From: Podarcis pityusensis | Taxonomy: Eukaryota | Strand: one strand, 5' to 3' | DNA length: 64,000 bases | Assembly (NCBI GenBank): GCA_964106645.2 | Contig: OZ078259.1 | In this document: piece by piece, positions 2,773-61,169 of the stretch | Layout of the letters: each line of letters starts with the position of its first letter | Numbering within the stretch: the first letter of the stretch is position 1 | The notes under the pieces: generated by a model | The model's input: only the letters and a program-made list of their open reading frames with translations | Told to the model about the DNA's origin: nothing | Databases searched by the model: none | Made by a program: the position numbers and the translations under genes

Positions 2773-4194
2773 AATGTTCCATATAATAAATAAAACAGCT
2801 TTACTCTTCCAAGCTCTTTCCCTGCATCTCCAGGATGTGGTACAGAATGTGAAGAGGAAAAAGACAAAAAAAAAAAGTTATGACATCCCCCCCCCTCCAT
2901 GTCCCCTATAGGAAAGGGTTTGTTTTGTGGAGGGGGTGTGGCTTACTCTGATTTGAATACATGACTTCTCCAGCTTCTCCTTTCACCATGCTTAGTCTCT
3001 GTTTCTTCTTTCACTCCCACCCCTTTGGTTTTTAAAAAGAGGCTTGATGACAAACTATGAGGGATGCTGTTGCAATGGGTTTCCTGCATCAGGGGCTGGA
3101 CTATTTGATATTTGGACATACCTCTCAACTCCAGGCTATTCCAAGGATTGCCATTCTTTCTGGGCCACTGGTCACACTTGGAGTTATGTGCAAGTACAGT
3201 GAGCATCCGTCACAAAATATCTGCCATGGTGTTGTGGCATAACACAAAAGAGCTGCCACACCTAAGCAAAGGGGCATGGGAAAAGATAGGAACACAACAT
3301 GGCGTAGCCGTGCCCCTCCACATCAGTACCCACAATCCACAGAAAGCACAGGCATTTACATTACACCTATGCCATGTATCTTTGCACCTCTCCTCTGTTC
3401 AGACTAGATAGGCTATGCCTCCAGTGCTGACATTCAATGTAACGTGAGCATGCAGCAGGGCGTATGCTCAGTGTAAGAGAAGCCAAGCCACTACAAGCAG
3501 GAACTGAGCAGGAACAACAACCAATATCTTGTGCACTGTGAAGTTTTAAAGGGATATTTACGGAGGCTTTTGAAGGGCTCGTTTTGGAGGGCATTTGATT
3601 GCCTGTGACCCCAGATTCATGACTCCTGATCTGTTCCCTGACCCCAGCTCCGTAGCCATCATATCACTTTTCTAAAAGCTCCCCCCCACTTGTTTCTTCC
3701 TTGCAGTTCGTGCTTACGGTCCCAATGTAGCCTCCCCTTATCTTGCCCCTGAAAGTTCACTCAGGGTTGACTCTGGGGACATGCCAGAAATCATGTCACT
3801 CTTGGTTGTGCCTCTGCTGGTTGCAGCTCTCCTTACTGAAGTCTAAGCTCCCAGGGGTGAGTGAATCCTCTTACGTTCCAGTAATGCTGAGTATACAAAA
3901 TCATTTAGTTTACTACCATTTGCATTTTGCTCATCAAAAACGAAGTAGCATCCCCCCCCTCCCACCAAAAATAATAATTAAAAAATGCATTATACAAAAT
4001 AAGTTGGCAGAGATGAGACATCAGTACATCTGATTCCAGAATGGTTCTTCTGCCCTCTGGAAACCTAGTCAGGTATATTTATGCATGCATGACAAGGGTT
4101 AATCAGTTTCCCACAGTTTGGTTATTAAAGAGGGTTCTCCCTGACCACTAGCCATCTGCTAGGGTGCAGAATTCTTTCCTTCAGGGAAGTGTGC

Positions 4195-4330
4195 CTTAAC
4201 GAATTTTTGACATCACCGTCGCATCGGCTCAGCGTTTTCCTGTCATCTCTCGGTTCCGATTAACTTTTTCTGAATTGACAGCTGCCATCAAAATTGCTGA
4301 GGTGGCAATCTGGAGTGTGTGCTCAATGGA
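4195..4330. promoter_or_regulatory. Candidate conserved non-coding element/enhancer
   Basis: Repeat-free; six CpGs within 4217-4258; MEIS-type CTGTCA (4240) and TGACAG (4276), the latter overlapping E-box CAGCTG. Conservation not tested. Confidence 0.35.
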
Positions 4331-5147
4331 GCAAGGTTAAAGCTTTTCCCCTCTTGTTTGCCACATGGCAGAAAATCAGGGGCAGAGAGAGAGTGGCAGG
4401 CTGAGCTTTTGCCAAACCATGCCCCACAAGGAAAACTGATCTATACTCCTTTGGGTGTTAGTATTTACAAATTAAGTAGCATTTCCCTCCAATGTGTTCT
4501 TTTTAAAAACTACATGAAATGCTTCACTGCTTTCTAAAACTTAAGTCTTAGTTTATTGGCAGAAGCGCACAAAGACTGTACGTACGCTGTGCTAAAAACT
4601 AATAATAATTGGTCAAAATTCTGCATCAGTGTTGGCCATCTTTTGTAACTGTAGTAAATGTTGTGCATATTGTTTCCTGTCTTGTATAACCTATTATGTG
4701 TGTTTTTATTTAAAGGAAAACTATTTTGCATAATTTATTTCACTTTTAGTAGTCATAGAGAGGTTCAAAAGTCTGTATGCCTCCCCACAGTGATGTATAA
4801 ACTCACTGAGGTGCTGAGATCTGAGATTTGTTTGGTATTGTTTGGTATTGCCCACTCCAATCATAAAGACTAGATTTATTAAAGGCGTAATTTTTTGGAA
4901 AGGAAAGCAGCAGCAGCAAGCTGAGATATTTAGGAAACTGGTTTCTGCAACCAATACCTGCAGAATTCTGCAGTGTTCCATGCTTCAGGAGGACCATGTT
5001 ATACGCACAGTCCTGGGTCCTGTCTGTGTAGAAAGGACTGAGAATGAAATTCCAGTCCCTTTAGAAATCCACTGAACATGGCTCAATGGACTAGCTCCTC
5101 CATTGCATTGTTGTAACCCACCCTGAGACCTGCTGGAGAATAATAGG

Positions 5148-5177
5148 TAATTAATTAATTAATTAATTAATTAATTA
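5148..5177. repeat. (TAAT)n microsatellite
   Basis: TAATTAATTAATT... run following an old LINE-tail-like motif (ttgtaacccaccctgagacc). Confidence 0.85.
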
Positions 5178-5315
5178 CTAACAAGAAATAAATTGTGGTT
5201 TTGCTTTGAATACAGTGTGGACATCTCTGAACTTTCCTCGGGAGAAGAAATCAGTTTCTAGCAAAACTGTAAAATATAAAAGAACTATCTGTCTTGCAGG
5301 GGATTGGATGAAATG

Positions 5316-6280
5316 ACCCCCAGGGCTCCTTCCAGCTCTACAATTCTATGAAAGCTGGCACCTAGTCTGAAACTAGGATCTGTAGGGTGGATGAAAGGGG
5401 GAAAAACATACAGGACGACAGCAGGCAGGTATTTGGGCATGAACATATGAACTGGATGGGTGGAGAGATATAGGCAGTCACTACTGGAGACCTGTAGGAA
5501 GGCTGGCAAGCAGCCTTTGGCTCAAAGCCAAAGCCATGGGTTTTTCTGTGCTGTGGCAGAGCTCAAGTAGGGAAGGAAAGTGTTTTCTGCTCAAGGCAAC
5601 CTTATGGGGGCACTGGATGCTAGTTGTGGACAGGGCAGGGGCAAAAGTGTGTTAAGTAACAGATGTGGCAATTGCACCTACTTTAGTTCTGTAGGCTGAA
5701 TTACAATTAAGCAAAAGCCATAGGGAAGCAGGAACCTGATTTGAACCATTGGTCCACCTTGCTCAGCATTGTCTGCACTGACTTAAAGTGACTCTCCAGA
5801 GATTCAGGCAAGAGTGTCCCCCAGCCTTGCCTGGAGATGCTGAGGATTGAACCTGGAGTCTTCTGCATGCTTGTGCATAAATTCCCCCCACCCACCCCTT
5901 GCATGTACAGCATATAGGTGCATACCCAACCTCCATTCAGGCAAGCAAGAGGAAGCATCACATATCAATGAGGCATTCCAATCATGCAAAATCACTTGAG
6001 GAGGGTGTGGAGCAGGGATAATAAGGGGCGTGGCTTGGGGAAAGAGGGTGTGGCTTGTGAAGAGCCTTGAGGACTCGCTAGAGAGGGATGGAGGGCTACA
6101 TTCAACCCCTAGGTCTGATCTCCCTTAAGAGTTTCAGTAGCAGGATGTGGATCCTGAGTGGTCCTCCACTGTCACTTCCAGGCTCAAGCTGAAGCTCTGC
6201 TTCTACAGATGCTAGTTTCAGACTAGGTGCCAGCTTTCATAGAACCATAGAATTGTAGAGTTGGAAGGAACCCCAAGGGT
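5316..6280. repeat. Inverted repeat pair (arms 5316-5385 and 6203-6280)
   Basis: A CR1-like tail plus 35 bp of flank (AAAGCTGGCACCTAGTCTGAAACTAG(G/C)ATCTGTAG) recurs reverse-complemented ~820 bp downstream. Confidence 0.9.
5560..6125 (+). mobile_element. Old hAT-like non-autonomous element interrupted by a tRNA SINE (~5722-5870, minus)
   Basis: Shares GGCAACC..GGGCAAAAGTG..CCATTCAGGCAAGCAAGAGG..GAGGAGGGTG motifs with copies at 44068-44432 (minus) and 54577-54902. Confidence 0.55.
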
Positions 6281-7074
6281 GAGTAGAACTCTTAACTGGG
6301 CAGTAGTACTAGCAGTATGGTGAATGATATACCTGGCTGTCCAGGCTTAATGTATTTGAGATACTTTTCAGTCATTTCCATCATACTTGATTCATTCCTG
6401 TTGATTGTCTACCTCGCCACCACACAAATGATTTATGGTACTGGCAATAGTAGGGGAATGGTTTGGCTTGAGTTTTCCCTCAGGCATCATGCTTTACAAG
6501 GGCTTTTCCCACATGAGGCACGAGGCTTACCTAAACCTCAGTGTTAACAATACGGCAGAAGCAGAATGCAAAGGCGAAACAGTCTTCAAATTGGCATGCT
6601 TTCGCAATGGCATTTGTGACACATGGCCTCCATTATTAGAAGCCATTTTCCTCCTGTAGTTTGTGCATTTTTGGAAAGCACTTAGCCCAAAGGTGAAAAA
6701 TGCTCCATTATGCAGTTTTGGGAAACTATCAAGGAATCCTAAAATGAAATAAAGCACATTGAAAAGTACCCCCTCTCCCAGGTTCCTGACCTAGTTTGTT
6801 AGATACACTGTTTCCTACAAAATTTACTAGATAACAGCTGAATTCACATCATTATAGTTAAAAGCTGTATCAGCATATCCTTTATAAAGTATCCCTTTCT
6901 CTCAACCTTCCCCAGACAGGTCTCAAGTTATTTCCCCCTATAATGATCCTCTGACATTCCCTACGCCTTTGTGAACAGTGACCTGTTTATTGCTGCTTAG
7001 AGACACTAAGATGACTTCTTTTTCTTTGGGACCAATTCTCAGTTCTGATCTGGTTCTTTTTATCACATATAGGG

Positions 7075-7280
7075 CAGAGCTTTCCCAACTGTGTGTCGTG
7101 ACATGTTAGTGTGTCGGCTGCAGTGTGTAGGTGTGTTGCGCAAATGCTTCCTGCGCTCCTCCTGGGACTGAAAAGGGGTTCGTTTGACCTCCGGTTTGCT
7201 AGTAAAACTGAATTACTGTGTTGTGAAATGATGCATGTCCAAAAAGTGTGTCACCAACATGAAAAGTTTGAAAAGCTCTG
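7075..7280. mobile_element. hAT-superfamily MITE
   Basis: TIRs CAGAGCTTTCCCAACT / AGTTTGAAAAGCTCTG; 8-bp TSD ATATAGGG / ACATAGGG. Confidence 0.85.
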
Positions 7281-8159
7281 ACATAGGGAATGAAAAGCAG
7301 TCAAATGTGAAATATTTCCATTTTTAGTGATTTTGCGAATGTTTGAGAAAGGGTGCTTGACAAAGCCAACCCTACTATTAGGCAAGGTGAGAAAGCTACA
7401 TAAGGCAGCAGATATGGAGGGATGCTAGACATAGCTGCATGTGCCAAATGGTTGCCTTGTGCCTTCTAAGCTAGCCCGCTTAGGACATAGTGTGGAATGG
7501 TAGCACTTGGCTGACCTCCCCACAGCTGAGTTGCTTCTGTTTCCTGAGAGGGAAATGGGGAGGGGCAAAGTGGTGGGGAAGTCAGCATGGTGCAAATACC
7601 AATCCAGTGCTCTTGCCACTGTGTTTGCAGTGCACCATCCTCCCCACTGCCTTTCCTTCCCCTTCTCCTTCTTGGAAAGCAGCACGGACTCATCCGTTAG
7701 GAAGTCAGGTGAGCCCCACCAGCCCAGCTTGCTGTCTACTAGCAGGTGAAATGGAGGGTGCCGCCAATGCTGAAGTAAGGATTAAATGCCAATCTAGTTT
7801 GTGTTTGCACATGGGATGGAGGGGGAGGTTGTCAGAGTGAAAGATGCCTCTGTTGCAAGCATTGATGTCTTCGGCATTGTCCACTAAGTAGGTAGTCATG
7901 GCGATGTTGCTCATTATTTCGTGTGAATAATTATGGTTTGCTGTTGACTTTCCTAATAGCCCTGAGTAACGCATTGATTTATTTGATTGATTAAATCAAT
8001 GGCTAAGAAAGCTTGGGTTATAGTATTTTGGACTCCTCTGTGTGCTTCTGAAATTAATTGAGCTGAAGCCTGTGGCTGGACTGCAGGAGGCAATTTACTG
8101 ACCCACTCACTGTAGTGTTTGTGTGTGCCTCTGATTGTTCTTGCTTTTTCACATATAGT

Positions 8160-8372
8160 CTTCTGTGAGCTTGTGGAAAATGCATTCTGTCCCTTTGCTC
8201 CAGTATAACTCTATCCCCATCACCATGAGCACTGTCAGTGGGACATCCAGGAAGCTTGAGCCCCATAACGTTTTGCTGCGCCCCCCTGGTTCTGATTGGG
8301 CATTGTGAGAGCAGGAGGCTGGGATAGATGGACCCTTGGCATAAGCAAGCAAGGCTCTTTTTAGGTTCTTAA
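8160..8372 (-). mobile_element. Squamate interspersed repeat (CR1-associated family; also ~20805-20980, ~35750-35900, 39083-39360)
   Basis: Reverse complement of the AAGAGCC.GCT..ATCAGGCC..GGCCCATC..TCCAGC..CCTG.TCTCACA motif seen in several copies. Confidence 0.55.
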
Positions 8373-9173
8373 CGTTAGCTATCTGTTTACCTTCAGTATT
8401 CAAGATGTTTTCTTATTGTAGTCTGATTATTGTGCCTTGGCTGGTGGTGCTTGTTTCTTGCCAAGCCAGAAAAAGTGTTCTCTTGCCAGCTTCTTTTTCT
8501 GTCCAATGTGTGCTTGCTATTGAATGTACAGATGTTTTTAAATCACATTTCAGCATGTTGTCTAATTTTTATGGCACGTCATTACAGTAACTATCCTGAT
8601 GAAAATGAAAGAGGAAATTGGTTTGGCTTCAAAAATCAATGAGCCATTAAATAGGGGACAGTAGTTGGAATAGGAATTTAGGATATTTAATTAGCTTGGC
8701 AGTGCAGTTGCCTATTCCCTGTTTCCTTCAAAATATCAAGCATGTGTACTGATATTTTTGTGGGATTTGGACATGACACCTTCATTTTTATTTTTATAAG
8801 GGGTCATCCATCACTGGAGCATAGGAAGATATAAAGATGCCATGCTCTGAGGGCCTAACCACACTTCCATTTCTCTCACATCTACCCCCCTCCCACTTGA
8901 AGATCAGTAGTGCCATAAGTTTTGTCCAGGAATCCTGTTCTTCATGCCACACTGCAATGTTTTAAGGAGGCATCCCTGAAAACATTTGATATTCCATCCA
9001 CTGCTGTTCCACTGTTCCTCTTTCTCTGCCCCCTTGTGGTTCAGCTTAGCTGCACATGCCCTCCTTTTCTGTTGTTCTTTGCCTGGGGATTCTTGCAGTT
9101 CACTGTGTTCCTGAACACAAGCACTTAGTATCATGTTGTCACTTCTCCGGAAACCCCAAGAGGGGAGTCCAAC

Positions 9174-43219: not shown

Positions 43220-43487
43220 CAGTGGTGCCTCGCAAGACGAAATTAATCCGTTCCGCGAGTCTCTTCGTCTTGCGGTTTTTTCGTCTTGCGAAGCACGGCT
43301 ATTAGCGGCTTAGCGGCTTAGCGGCTTAAAGAAAAAGGAAACAAACTCGCAAGAACTCGCAAGACGTTTCGTCTTGCGAAGCAAGCCCATAGGGAAATTC
43401 GTCTTGTGGAATGACTCAAAAAACGGAAAACTCTTTCGTCTGCGAGTTTTTCGTCTTGCGAGGCATTCGTCTTGTGGGGCACCACTG
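43220..43487. mobile_element. Tc1/mariner-pogo (Tigger-like) MITE, CpG-rich
   Basis: TA TSDs; TIRs CAGTGGTGCCTCGCAAGACGAA / TTCGTCTTGTGGGGCACCACTG; internal repeated TTCGTCTTGCG motifs and (TTAGCGGC)3. Confidence 0.92.
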
Positions 43488-47091: not shown

Positions 47092-48890
47092 CTGTTTTAT
47101 TTTTTAATTTGGGGTTTTTCACTAATGAAAATATCACCAGGGATCAGTTCGACCCAATTAAAGTAAATAGGAGTGAAACACTATGCTTCTACGGTATTAG
47201 GGCTCTAACTGACCCAACAAACTCAATATTTCATTTATTTTGATGCATAGGGAGAAAGAGGGTTACCCACTCAGTATTCCCCCCACCTCGCTTAATTCAT
47301 AAACTCGGCTGTTTAGACAGTATGACAGCCAGGGTAGCTCAGTGCTGTTTTTAACTTACTGGCAGCAGGTCTTGTGGGTTGAAGGCAGGGATATTTCCAA
47401 ACCTCCTCTTTATATGTAAGGGCATTTGCCTTTCACAAGGTAAGTGTGCTTTGCTTTGTGCTACAGCCCTGCTGCTTTTCAGTTAAATTGTGTGGGTAAA
47501 AGGATCTGGGGCCTCCGAGACTCCATGACAGCATTCCCTTAGTTGGCTCTCCAGATGTTGCTGGCCTCTAACTCCCATCAGCTCAATGCAGTGTAGTCAA
47601 AGGATGATGGGCTCTGTAGTCCAATAATATCTGGAGGGTATATGACTGGAGAAAGCTGCCTAGTAGGAAAGAACATAGTGGAGAACACTGGACACCATTG
47701 TTATATAGATGTAGCCCTGCACTGTAAACCATAATTCTTAACAGAATGTCATCTATAATATTATTTTATTCGTAAACCTATATATGTGGGTTGCCTTTTA
47801 GGACACTGTCCTCACAAGGCAGCTTATAATTTGTCTTTCTCTCACACCTCACCACCCCCAAAAAGCAGCCAACTTTTCATTACAGTAAAGGCTACAGACA
47901 ATATTCAATTACAACTTCATTTTCTCATTTCATATCACAAAATATTGAAGTGAGTGTCAGAGGTTCCCTTGTAGAGGTAAAATGGTAAGAAACGGTCACC
48001 ACCTTTGAAGAAAATCACCAATAAGAGAAATCACTTGTCAAAATCTTGTTCATAAGTAAAATTTCCAAGAACTTGTTAAACTGTTCTTTAATGGGTGGTG
48101 AGGGGCGGGGAACTATTGCAGACTCAAGAGGAGCAACTCACCCTGTGATCACTTTGCCCTCTGGATGCTGTTAGACTGCAGCTCCCTTCATCCCCGGCCT
48201 TGTTGACTAGGACTAATGGGAAGTAGAATCCAACAACATCTGGAGGGTATCGTGTTAGCTACCCCTGCATTGAAAGAGTCCCGGCCAACCTTAGTACGTG
48301 GGCACCTTAAGTGGTAGTAAGTTCCTCTCTCCCCACATTGTTTGCAGCAATGTAAACTACTGATTTTCAATATTTGATTAGTAAAGTGTTTTTTCTTTCT
48401 TTAGCAGGATTAGGGCAATTAAAAAGACTGAGTAGCAGTTAAATGAAGTGTCACAGTCAATACCTAGGATTCTAACATGAGTGAACAGAAGGAAGTTCAT
48501 GAAAGGCAAGTTTCTCATTTTTCCTTCTCCACTGTACCATCTACACAGTTTTCACCAGAGGGATCTTCCTGAATCATGTTGGATTCATGGCCCCTGGGGA
48601 AGGAGGTATCTCCCAAAATGAGGTTGGAGGTACCTTTTCCTTTTTGATTGATTATTCCCTTGCAACCCAGCCCTGAACACATGGAGAGGTATTTCAGAGT
48701 ACTTAGCAAGGGTAAGGGAATGGAAACTTTTCCTTCTTTCACTTCCTCAGGATCCGAACCCATGATCAAAATTGTAATGATGGCTGACATTCACATACAG
48801 ATGCTGATAATCCCAGGCAAATGTCATGATTGTCAGTCATATATCCCCACTTGTTGGACAAATACTAGTGAATGATGACAGTCACACTTA

Positions 48891-48989
48891 TTTTCAGTGT
48901 ATCTGAAGAAGTGTGCTTGCACACGAAAGCTCATACCAAGAACTAACTTAGTTGGTCTTAAAGGTGCTACTGGAAGGAATTTTTTTTAT
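48891..48989 (+). mobile_element. Penelope-like element (PLE) terminal-repeat fragment with 11-bp TSD
   Basis: TSD AGTCACACTTA at 48880-48890 and 48990-49000; contains a hammerhead core followed by TTAGTTGGTCTTAAAGGTGCTACTGG, which I recognise as a reptile PLE pseudo-LTR end. Confidence 0.85.
48899..48936 (+). ncRNA. Minimal type I hammerhead ribozyme motif
   Basis: GUAU-CUGAAGA-A-GUGUGC(UU)GCACAC-GAAA-GC-UC-AUAC: catalytic boxes, a 6-bp stem II, stem I GUAU/AUAC and a vestigial palindromic (AGCU) stem III. Confidence 0.8.
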
Positions 48990-49589
48990 AGTCACACTTA
49001 GGTGACTGTCAAAACCCATTGGTTTATTTATACTTGTGGGGCATTCATACAGGGAAGATTGCAAAGATATGAATTCTGGCATTCACCAATTTGGGGATAT
49101 TTGCCATAATGTAAATGTTCAAGAACGAGCAAGATTCCTGATGCTGGATTTATCCATAAACAAAGCTTCCTTTGATAAATCCTCTTGCACATTCCAAGTC
49201 CATATGCTGTCCTGGTAATGCTATAATTAAGCCAAAGAGTCATGTCAAAACGGCCTTTTCCATCTGTTGTGCGATCTGCTCAGGGACCAATTCAGAAAGA
49301 GTGACAACTGACCTGAAAAAAAAGAGAGACACTTCATTCATTTTACAAGAGTTGTTGTTTAGGTCCACCTCTTCTTTTCCAAATGAACAGGAGAAGCATT
49401 CCAAGTCAATAAAATAACTGTTGTCCCCCCCATCTGACCGACACATTCTGAAATCTGCTATGTTGTTCCTTGAAAATGTTGTGTCTTAGAGAGAAGGCAC
49501 AAAGGTCCACTCATGCACAACATACAAACACATTATGAAACATTTTAATTTTCCCCTTACGTAAAGTACAAAAACCATGGGAAGAATTA

Positions 49590-58073: not shown

Positions 58074-58110
<37 letters not shown>

Positions 58111-60911
58111 TTATTATTTGTACCCGCCCATCTGGCTGGGTTTCTCCAGCCACCCTGGGCGGCTTCCACAGAAACCGAAAATACACTAAAATATCACACA
58201 TTAAAAACTTCCCTGAACAGGGCTGCCTTAAGATGTCTTCTGAATGTCAGGTAGTTGTTTATCGCTTTGACATCTGACGGGAGGGCGTTCCACAGGGCTG
58301 GCGCCACTACCGAGAAGGCCCTCTGCCTGGTTCCCTGTAGCTTTGCTTCTCGCAATGAAGGAACCGCCAGAAGGCCCTCGGCGCTGGACCTCAGCATCCG
58401 GGCAGAATGATGGGGGTGGAGACACTCCTTCAGGTATACTGGGCTGAGGCCATTTAGGGCTTTAAAGGTCAACACCAGCACTTTGAATTGTGCTCGGAAA
58501 CGTACTGGGAGCCAATGCAGGTCTTTCAAGACCGGTGTTATGTGGTCTCGGCGGCTGCCCCCAGTCACCAGTCTAGCTGCCGCATTCTGGATTAGTCGTA
58601 GTTTCCGAGTCACCTTCAAAGGTAGCCCCACATAGAGCGCATTGCAGTAGTCCAAGCGTGAGATAACTAGAGCATGCACCACTCTGGCGAGACAGTCCGC
58701 GGGCAGGTAGGGTCTCAGTCTGCGTACCAGGTAGAGTGGTAGACAGCTGTCCTGGATAAAGAATTGACCTGTGCCTCCATGGACAGCTGTGAGTCCAAAA
58801 TGACTCCCAGGCTGCGCACCTGGTCCTTCAGGGGCACAGTTACCCCATTCAGGATCAGGGAGTCCTCTACACCAGCCCGCCCCCTGTCCCCCAAAAACAG
58901 TACTTCTGTCTAGTCAGGATTCAACCTCAATCCATTAGCCGCCATCCATCCTCCAACTGCCTCCAGGCACTCACACAGGACCTTCACCGCCTTCACTGGT
59001 TCTGATTTGAAAGAGAGGTAGAGCTGGGTATCATCTGCATATTGATGGACACCCAGTACAAACTCCCTGATGATCTTTCCCAGCGGCTTCATATAGATGT
59101 TAAAAAGCATGGGGGAGAGGACGGAACCCTGAGGTACCCCACAAGTGAGGGCCCAGGGGTCTGAACACTCATCCCCCCCACCACTTTCTGAACATGGCCC
59201 AGGAGGAAGGAGCGAAACCACTGTATAACAGTGCCCCCAGCTCCCAGCCCCTTTAGACGGTCCAGAAGGATGTTATGGTCGATTGTATCAAAGGCCGCTG
59301 AGAGATCCAGCAGAACTAGGAAACAGCTCTCACCTTTGTCCCTAGCTTGCCGGAGATCATCAACTAGCACGACCAAGGCAGTTTCAGTCCCATGATGAGG
59401 CCTGAATCCCGATTGGAAGGAATCCAAATGGTCCGCATCCTCCAGGCGCGCCTGGAGTTGTTCAGCAACCACTCGCTCAATCACCTTACCCAAGAATGGA
59501 AGATTTGAGACTGGGTGATAGTTGGCCATACTGGCTGGGTCTAAAGATGTCTTTTTAAGAAGCGGTTTAATGACCGCCTCTTTTAGCGGATCTGGGAATG
59601 TTCCCTCACAGAGGGAAGCATTCACCACCCCGCAGAGCCCATCACCCAGCCCTTTCCAGCTTGCTTTTATTAGCCAGGATGGGCAAGGATCAAGGAGACA
59701 GGTGGTTGGTTTCACGTGTCCAAGCAGCCTTTCCACATCCTCGGGGGTAACAGATTGAAATTGATTCCATGCAACTTGACCAGACAGAGATCTAGCACTC
59801 TCCCGCCCCAGCCCTGCTCCCACGGTGATGTCTAGTTCCTTCCGAATATGAGTGATTTTATCTGCAAAAAACTTTGCAAAATCGTTGCAGGAGATCTTGG
59901 GGTCTTTACAAGGCCCCGGTGGTAAGGTGGTTCCGTTAAATTGCGGACCACCTGAAAGAGTCTCCTGCTACTATTTTCTGCAGATGCAATAGAGGCGGTG
60001 AAGAAAGTCTTCTTCGCCGTCGCTATCGCCACTTGGTAGGCTTGATGTTGAGCTCTAACCTGTGTCTGGTCAGATTCGGAATGAGTTTTCTGCCACCAAC
60101 GCTCTAGCCATCTCAGCAATTGTTTCATTGCCCTCAGCTCCGAAGAAAACCATGGGGCTGTCTGGGCTCCATGCAATCGGAGAGGGCGCTTCGGAGCCAG
60201 ACAGTCGATAGCCCTGGTTAACTCCGTATTCCAGCGGGCCACCAGGGAATCAGCTGAAAGGCCATCAACATGGGATAAAGCATCCCCTACCACTCTCTGG
60301 AAGCCAATTGGATCCATTAAGTGGTGGGGGCGGACCATCTGAATTGGTCCCACCTCCCTGCAGAGGGGAAGGGTCACAGAGAAGTCCAGTTGCACCAGGA
60401 AGTGATCTGACCAGGGCAGTTTTTTTGTTTCACTTTTACTTAGTGTCAGATCACCCACGTCACTAGAGGTGAACACCAGGTCTAAGGCCAAACTTATTTT
60501 GGGACAGCCCCATGGAGGCCATGCTTTCCACAAAGTCCCGAGCGGCCCCTTGTAAGGTCGTGTCGGCATGGATGTTAAAATCCCCTAGGACAACCAAACT
60601 AGGTGTCTCCAGGAGAATATCCGCCACGACCTGAAGCAGCTCGGACAGGAAATCCTTGGTGCAGCGGGGAGGTCGGTACACCAAAAGGAATCCTGTACTG
60701 CCCCTATTGCCCAACTTCCAGAACATGCACTCAGAAAACTGGGTCTTCCCAGTAGGACACCTGATGCAAGCTAATGACTTCCTAAAAATCACTGCAACCC
60801 CCCCTCCCCACCCACATGACCTGGGTTGCTGTGCGTAAGAGAAACCTGGTGGGCAAGCAGTGGCAAGGACAGGCCCATCTGCTTCCTCCAACCAGGTCTC
60901 TGTCACCCCAT
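58074..60911 (-). mobile_element. Decayed L2-clade LINE ORF2 (APE endonuclease + reverse transcriptase), 5'-truncated
   Basis: APE motifs VTETWL, GGGVA, VYRPP, GDFNIH and SDH; RT motifs QSGFRP.HGTETAL, LLDLSAAFDTIDH, GVPQGSVLSP and YADDTQLY; L2 C-terminus SRLDYCNALY...LHWLP; several frameshifts; (TAA)n tail. Confidence 0.96.
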
Positions 60912-61169
60912 TAATGTTGCTTTGTGTGATTTTCTTTGACAGTCTTTGTGAACTGTTTTTGGAAAGCACTCTTTGTGCACTACAACTTTAGGACTGAGCT
61001 GAAATGGGAGGAGTGCTTTTTCATGCCTCCATAAAGAAAGGCCAATTCATTTTGGTGAAATTTTGTGGAGTGAAACTAGCGGGGGTGGGGTGGGGTGGTA
61101 ATCTCAGGAAGAGGAGGAGTGCATTGTGCTTTGCATAGCTCTGGAGGTCACCATTCTTAAAGTGACTCC

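Follow-up and report, generated by a model that had tools for sequence, protein, structure and literature searches.

The window analysed here is a 64-kb stretch of DNA in which an exact 11-bp direct repeat, AGTCACACTTA, occupies positions 48880-48890 and 48990-49000 and encloses 99 bp, with no extension of the repeat on either side. A sequence-only reading had described a perfect 11-bp target-site duplication (TSD) around 99 bp, and all of its coordinates were reproduced. The features of the insert and its edges are as follows.

48880..48890, plus strand: left TSD copy (11 bp), identical to 48990-49000
48891..48989, plus strand: 99-bp insertion, member of a high-copy repeat family, with family homology from 48892
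48894..48898, plus strand: Inr-like TCAGT, a putative promoter element, which in longer family members lies 20 nt behind TATATATA
48897..48899, plus strand: frequent start positions of sister copies (predicted RNA 5' ends), seen as loose ends with unrelated AT-rich flanks
48899..48902, plus strand: 5' strand of helix I, GUAU, complementary to AUAC at 48933-48936
48903..48910, plus strand: hammerhead core CUGAAGA (C3-A9, 48903-48909) and the unpaired A48910 typical of minimal hammerheads
48911..48924, plus strand: helix II, 5 bp (GUGUG/CACAC) with a CUUG loop, closed by G10.1-C11.1
48925..48932, plus strand: GAAA of the core (48925-48928), the AGCU palindrome (48928-48931) replacing helix III, and C17 (48932)
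48933..48936, plus strand: 3' strand of helix I, AUAC, with no listed family variant of at least 3 %
48961..48966, plus strand: segment predicted by folding to pair with 48899-48904, blocking helix I and C3-U4
48980..48989, plus strand: T-rich 3' end without poly(A), a likely internal reverse-transcription start, with loose ends behind 48986-48989
48990..49000, plus strand: right TSD copy (11 bp), identical to 48880-48890

Direct repeats of 11 bp are not rare in themselves, as 15 with a period of 60-300 were counted in the window outside tandem arrays (about 1e-6 per position and period). Thus, the weight of the TSD rests on its position at both edges of the family homology, for which the chance probability is about 1e-4 (5 nt of slack per edge). 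No second copy of the insert was found in the 64-kb window (best other BLAST match E = 0.19). Neither a crude exon scan nor Pfam searches of 12 flank frames, which would miss short exons, found a host gene at the locus, and the earlier remark that the ribozyme would lie in any sense pre-mRNA is therefore unsupported. When all 224 stop-free frames of at least 70 aa outside the GC-rich tandem array were searched with Pfam, only LINE remnants at 58.9-61.0 kb were observed. Minus-strand frames at 48500-49330 have a faint decayed-coding look, with a best Pfam match of only E = 0.09.

Without the insert and one TSD copy, the target is a perfect hairpin with a 10-bp stem and a 6-nt loop (48876-48885 / 49002-49011), and one edge of the duplication falls inside the loop. 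Four other non-microsatellite hairpins of this kind are present in the 64 kb, and the chance of overlap is about 1 in 600. The hairpin may have been a cruciform target or may be a fold-back from repair.

Elsewhere in the window, a decayed AP-endonuclease/RT LINE (Pfam RVT_1 and Exo_endo_phos) lies on the minus strand at 58074-60987, with related LINE 3' pieces at 1399-1700, 24474-24943 and 26655-26736. The GC-rich tandem array occupies 21829-22984 (period about 89 bp, 89-97 % identity between units), and a near-perfect tandem duplication of 115 bp (99 %) was found at 30128-30358. An element flanked by TA at 43220-43487, which has inverted repeats at its termini and short repeats inside, is presumably MITE-like. 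Judged by its repeats, the host would be a vertebrate, probably a lizard.

In the definition of Cervera and De la Pena (2014, PMC4209133), the minimal hammerhead ribozyme (min-HHR) of Penelope-like elements (PLEs) has a short helix I and a G10.1-C11.1 pair, one base is left unpaired ahead of helix II, and a palindrome serves for helix III. The insert carries the CUGANGAH and GAAA core, the unpaired nucleotide before helix II and G10.1-C11.1, and a 15.2-16.2 palindrome followed by U-H (AGCU then C, 48928-48932) stands in the place of helix III. With GCTC at 48929-48932, cleavage is predicted at 48932/48933. The sequence-only reading had placed CUGAAGA, the extra A, GAAA, GCUC and the AUAC/GUAU pairing at exactly these positions, and its assignment to a Penelope-type minimal type I hammerhead with an AGCU palindrome and predicted cleavage after C48932 agrees with the published anatomy. 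In the case of stem II, for which 6 bp had been proposed, the helix was redrawn with 5 bp and the CUUG loop. It is because a sixth pair would close a 2-nt loop, which is disallowed by construction in the folding model used.

The core plus stem-II pattern has its sole match on either strand of the 64 kb here, and the full min-HHR descriptor gave one match in the window and none in 150 order-2 Markov windows (both strands). A hammerhead pattern had no matches in viral, metagenome and prokaryote-genome contigs. Rfam scans gave chance-level matches only, and the Rfam hammerhead models, which had been named earlier as a check, reported no hammerhead at the motif; since min-HHRs are expected to escape Rfam, this miss carries no weight against it. 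A snoRNA identity was rejected as the scores were far under the gathering threshold.

When the insert was folded in silico, the predicted probability of the helix I pairs was below 0.01 in the whole insert, against about 0.5 in the core alone, and that of a hammerhead-compatible fold was 3e-6 for the insert by itself and 4e-5 once flanks were included. A double hammerhead was predicted at -24.9 kcal/mol, against -30.2 kcal/mol for two monomers. The poor activity in cis proposed by the sequence-only reading would thus be expected both from the folding prediction and from published min-HHRs, of which the monomer showed no cleavage and the dimer low cleavage (PMC4209133). The ribozyme of the 99-bp copy is predicted to be folded off, and it would need a partner copy and probably a PLE protein.

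For the family, public contigs were mapped to 48720-49170 at 84 % likeness; they came from four of the 24 runs listed and represent four related organisms (A, B, C and E), and 3971, 2667, 4411 and 9368 contigs, respectively, were placed on the insert. The flanks had no contig cover in any of the four runs, probably as a filter effect, and the empty allele was not observed. The ratio of plateau depth to long-contig depth was 96,000, 39,000, 119,000 and 67,000. As this ratio is not a copy number, would be halved by heterozygous long contigs and stands beside one copy in 64 kb, the family size is stated only as likely tens of thousands of copies. In organism A, 31 % of the depth carries the window allele A48960, against 0.4-1.2 % in the other three. 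This skew points to a young lineage-specific subfamily, with which the perfect duplication agrees, and the 99-bp copy belongs to a subfamily that likely underwent recent expansion in organism A. Counts of 99 %-alike contigs were rejected as a measure of age as they did not separate the runs.

Listed stem positions of helices I and II are invariant in the family, in a variant table that is seemingly blind within about 30 nt of the alignment ends. C17 is U in 7-30 % of the family depth, so that the U-H rule is kept. Catalytic G12 (48925), which lies in a CpG, reads A in 8-17 % of the depth of every run, and the variant table has no entry for the mirror change at 48924. An end-filter effect could account for this variant, as could a subfamily that went on amplifying with a dead ribozyme. 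The idea that copies with the variant propagate as a subfamily was rejected because of the CpG site and because the mirror change is possibly hidden by the end filter.

Upstream of 48892, shared sequence was observed in 24, 29, 28 and 38 contigs of the four runs (agreement 0.58-0.79), and behind 48986-48989 the contigs run on into partly shared T-rich sequence (agreement about 0.5). The 99 bp are thus a slice of a longer parent and not a discrete retrozyme unit, and the 3' end of the insert, past which the family sequence continues, is likely an internal reverse-transcription start. One plus-strand frame (48893-48988) has both of its stop codons at family-variable positions (48944 and 48959-48960); the parent may be open in this frame, as in PLE ORFs that start inside the pseudo-LTR (pLTR). 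Go-back (partial tandem) joints make up 11 of the 12 joint rows listed, out of 23 in all, and opposite-strand joints were found in three rows. The family therefore displays truncation at the 5' end, a 3' extension in some copies, and insertions that are partly tandem or inverted; 5' truncation, optional 3' extension and partial tandems are described as standard PLE traits in PMC8557442 and PMC8969392.

No TATA box is present in the 99-bp copy. In the upstream shared sequence, TATATATA lies exactly 20 nt before TCAGT, and the contig loose ends therefore place the hammerhead within a pLTR-like layout of TATATATA, 20 nt and Inr, a PLE trait recognized here by motif match alone. The 5' ends of sister copies fall at 48899 in all four runs (46, 48, 51 and 53 contigs) and at 48897 in three of the four (20, 17 and 17 contigs), in both cases with unrelated, AT-rich flanks (agreement 0.37-0.42), these figures being drawn from 24 of 426 loose-end rows that were not ranked by count alone. 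Starts at 48899 were also seen for 11 of the 32 contig pieces listed, and 7 of the 11 go-back joints listed restart at 48897 or 48899. The upstream consensus holds two TATA registers, and each of the two positions follows one of them by 31 nt. G precedes 48899 in every one of the four loose-end consensus lines, as it does in the four listed go-back joints that restart there.

The sequence-only reading had considered a discrete short family, with random truncation of copies as the mark of an ordinary PLE fragment. A discrete unit is not supported for the copy beginning at 48892, since the family extends both ways; at the level of the family, the idea has partial support in the clustering of 5' ends at 48897 and 48899, and these ends are not random.

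Published min-HHRs occur as thousands of mostly single copies per genome, reptiles included (PMC4209133). Similarly, the present family is dispersed, high-copy and mostly single (thousands of contigs per run with unique flanks; one copy in the window), and it shares with the PLE min-HHRs of that paper the 4-bp helix I, the 5-bp helix II, the U-rich upstream sequence and the mostly solitary, dispersed occurrence. On a rough estimate, its abundance is about 10 times the 4,000-9,000 motifs given there for coelacanth and Xenopus. The min-HHR of the painted turtle Chrysemys picta (Fig. S3 of PMC4209133) has the same CUGAAGAA core, unpaired nucleotide before helix II, G10.1-C11.1 and GAAA-G-C-U-H without loop 3. 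In a single by-eye comparison, the turtle has C-G for U-A at helix I pair 2 and G-C for U-A at helix II pair 4, and both changes are compensatory. The turtle motif differs in loop II and in having U17 against C17 in the insert, and in Fig. S3 it is not marked as ORF-associated.

By layout, the insert resembles the Poseidon PLE PAc of Anolis carolinensis (Frangieh et al. 2024, PMC11167929), which has a hammerhead at the pLTR end, an internal reverse-transcription start downstream and insertions across the uncleaved site. According to that paper, the anole PLE in vitro starts reverse transcription internally, takes uncleaved RNA as its main substrate and has a ribozyme that needs the PLE protein; PAc prefers ATT-rich targets, whereas the target here is a hairpin. 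The pLTR of Adineta vaga Pen2a_Av (Arkhipova et al. 2013, PMC3846280) likewise has TATATATA, 20 bp, an Inr-like pentamer, an optional tail and solo pLTRs, and TSDs of 8-10 bp are reported. Unlike it, the window copy is without the TATA part and without an inverted arm. The insert is likely a well-formed example of a kind already described, namely an inert Penelope-type pseudo-LTR stub with a minimal hammerhead.

No RT or GIY-YIG ORF was found in the window by Pfam searches of frames, and protein searches with two short insert frames were also empty, which is weak evidence. Since no such ORF is linked to the family, its membership in PLEs is argued from non-coding anatomy. L1-type mobilisation was rejected, as there is no poly(A) and no T4/A-type cut. 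In addition, the insert does not look like a LINE-mobilised SINE: its 3' end is T-rich and no A or B boxes are visible by eye in the 99 bp.

When family depth was compared across the scissile bond, the 48938/48932 ratio was 0.93, 0.83, 0.97 and 0.90 in the four runs, with no rise past the bond. The absence of a step up argues against a large class that starts at the cleavage product, and the templates were likely uncleaved; the 99-bp copy itself spans an intact scissile bond. The predicted blocking of helix I by 48961-48966 would offer a reason for uncleaved templates. We consider it highly probable that the 99 bp are a copy of a very abundant family, likely a 5'-truncated PLE end (pseudo-LTR plus minimal hammerhead) that likely came from uncleaved RNA and was inserted at a staggered cut, the source of the 11-bp duplication.

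The motif, the duplication, the family membership and the family sequence past both ends are established for the insert, and from these we infer the following insertion steps. A PLE RT/GIY-YIG protein would nick the target, cDNA would start inside the U-rich stretch at 48989, and RT would read across the intact scissile bond and halt at 48892. This position lies a few nt ahead of the predicted start site, so that the template would be a read-through transcript with its end in the downstream pLTR, and the copy is best read as a plain truncation. Without a TATA box, it was likely dead on arrival.

Two other accounts of the copy were weighed. That it acts as a functional self- or trans-cleaving element within a host pre-mRNA would be in keeping with its intact core (G12 and C17 in place) and with the very many potential partner copies in the family. 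However, no host gene was found at the locus in the scans described above, the hammerhead-compatible fold and the double hammerhead are both disfavoured by the predicted probabilities and energies, published min-HHR dimers cleave poorly (PMC4209133) and the subfamily is young, so that we regard this account as very improbable. The other account, a retrozyme- or SINE-like family of discrete, non-autonomous units of about 90-100 nt that spreads from its own short copies via PLE proteins, is less far-fetched but still unlikely. The clustering of 5' ends at 48899 (four of four runs) and 48897 (three of four) and the very high abundance would suit it, and a preprint (bioRxiv 10.64898/2026.07.22.740005) describes families derived from pLTRs, 51-972 bp in size, in which solo monomers occur. 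Against it, the window copy begins at 48892 and the family continues on both sides, short copies would be without a TATA box, depth shows no step where cleavage is predicted, no tandem array occupies the locus, and the hammerhead is minimal and not of the canonical retrozyme type.

The same contrasts appear when the insert is set beside metazoan retrozymes, which are tandem units of 150-450 bp with canonical hammerheads and circular RNA (PMC7229834). Like non-LTR retrozymes, it has a type I hammerhead, is non-coding and likely PLE-dependent, and has a TSD of more than 4 bp (PMC7229834; bioRxiv 10.64898/2026.07.22.740005). Unlike them, its ribozyme is minimal, and it is single, 99 bp long, a slice of a longer parent and bounded by ends unrelated to the cleavage site. 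By the definition of PMC7229834, a canonical type I hammerhead has a helix III and loop-loop contacts; the insert carries no such ribozyme, and the locus holds a single copy, with partial tandems only among the joints listed. The window copy therefore falls outside the strict retrozyme class on ribozyme type, array and length. The 2026 preprint uses the term more broadly, for tandems that derive from pLTRs and occur with solo monomers. Arrays may exist elsewhere in the genome, and this broader definition could cover them.

For the clustered 5' ends of the family, a capped PLE RNA 5' end, reached by run-off after an internal RT start in the 5'-proximal pLTR tail (a strong-stop-like cDNA), is in our estimate about as probable as its negation. 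A TATA box typically lies at -31/-30 relative to the start site, and a cap can be copied as G by RT. Both 48897 and 48899 are 31 nt past a TATA register, and the G before 48899 throughout the listed lines and joints is what a copied cap would yield; internal RT initiation is also shown by the anole PLE (PMC11167929). However, the RNA 5' end is a prediction from contigs, for which 24 of the 426 loose-end rows and 12 of the 23 rows of joints were used, and the Inr predicts A48896, which is absent from the loose-end rows listed. Snap-back of the cDNA on helix I would also yield G before 48899, and one joint has the expected TTG stub, whereas two of the three joints at 48897 fit GTG microhomology with 48911-48913. 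A different origin of the ends, by RT stall or cDNA snap-back at the 5' edge of helix I or by RNA trimming there or at a CAG acceptor (48895-48897), is one that we hold to be possible, with a probability well short of even. Position 48899 opens both helix I and the predicted blocking helix, the opposite-strand joints of three rows are consistent with it, the intron in D. virilis ends at helix I (PMC4209133) and self-priming was proposed in PMC3846280. The 31-nt spacing would be left unexplained, however; the 4-bp pairing is weak for snap-back, and a spliced template should bring a shared upstream exon, whereas flank agreement is just 0.37-0.42.

A broader proposal includes the capped end, and we put it forward tentatively and would sooner doubt than assert it. 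Most solo min-HHR copies in the lineage would be strong-stop-like integrants: reverse transcription would start internally in the 5' pLTR tail and run off at the capped end 31 nt behind the two-register TATA, and the cDNA would either integrate as a stub of about 90 nt or jump template and so rebuild a pseudo-LTR. The 99-bp window copy is outside this strong-stop class. The proposal was not found stated in the literature searched, a search with subscription papers and Repbase outside its scope.

The locus itself is of little consequence, as the stub that it holds is likely inert and the class of retroelement is known. More can be drawn from the family, whose data point to uncleaved templates, and this bears on what the PLE hammerhead is for. 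The fresh lead is that many sister copies stop where the parent RNA is predicted to begin, and such a defined 5' stop could explain pseudo-LTR formation. If the proposal is true, strong-stop integration would account for the mass of solitary hammerheads, and template jumping would offer a way to regenerate pLTRs, a process whose mechanism was not obvious to the authors of PMC2377424.
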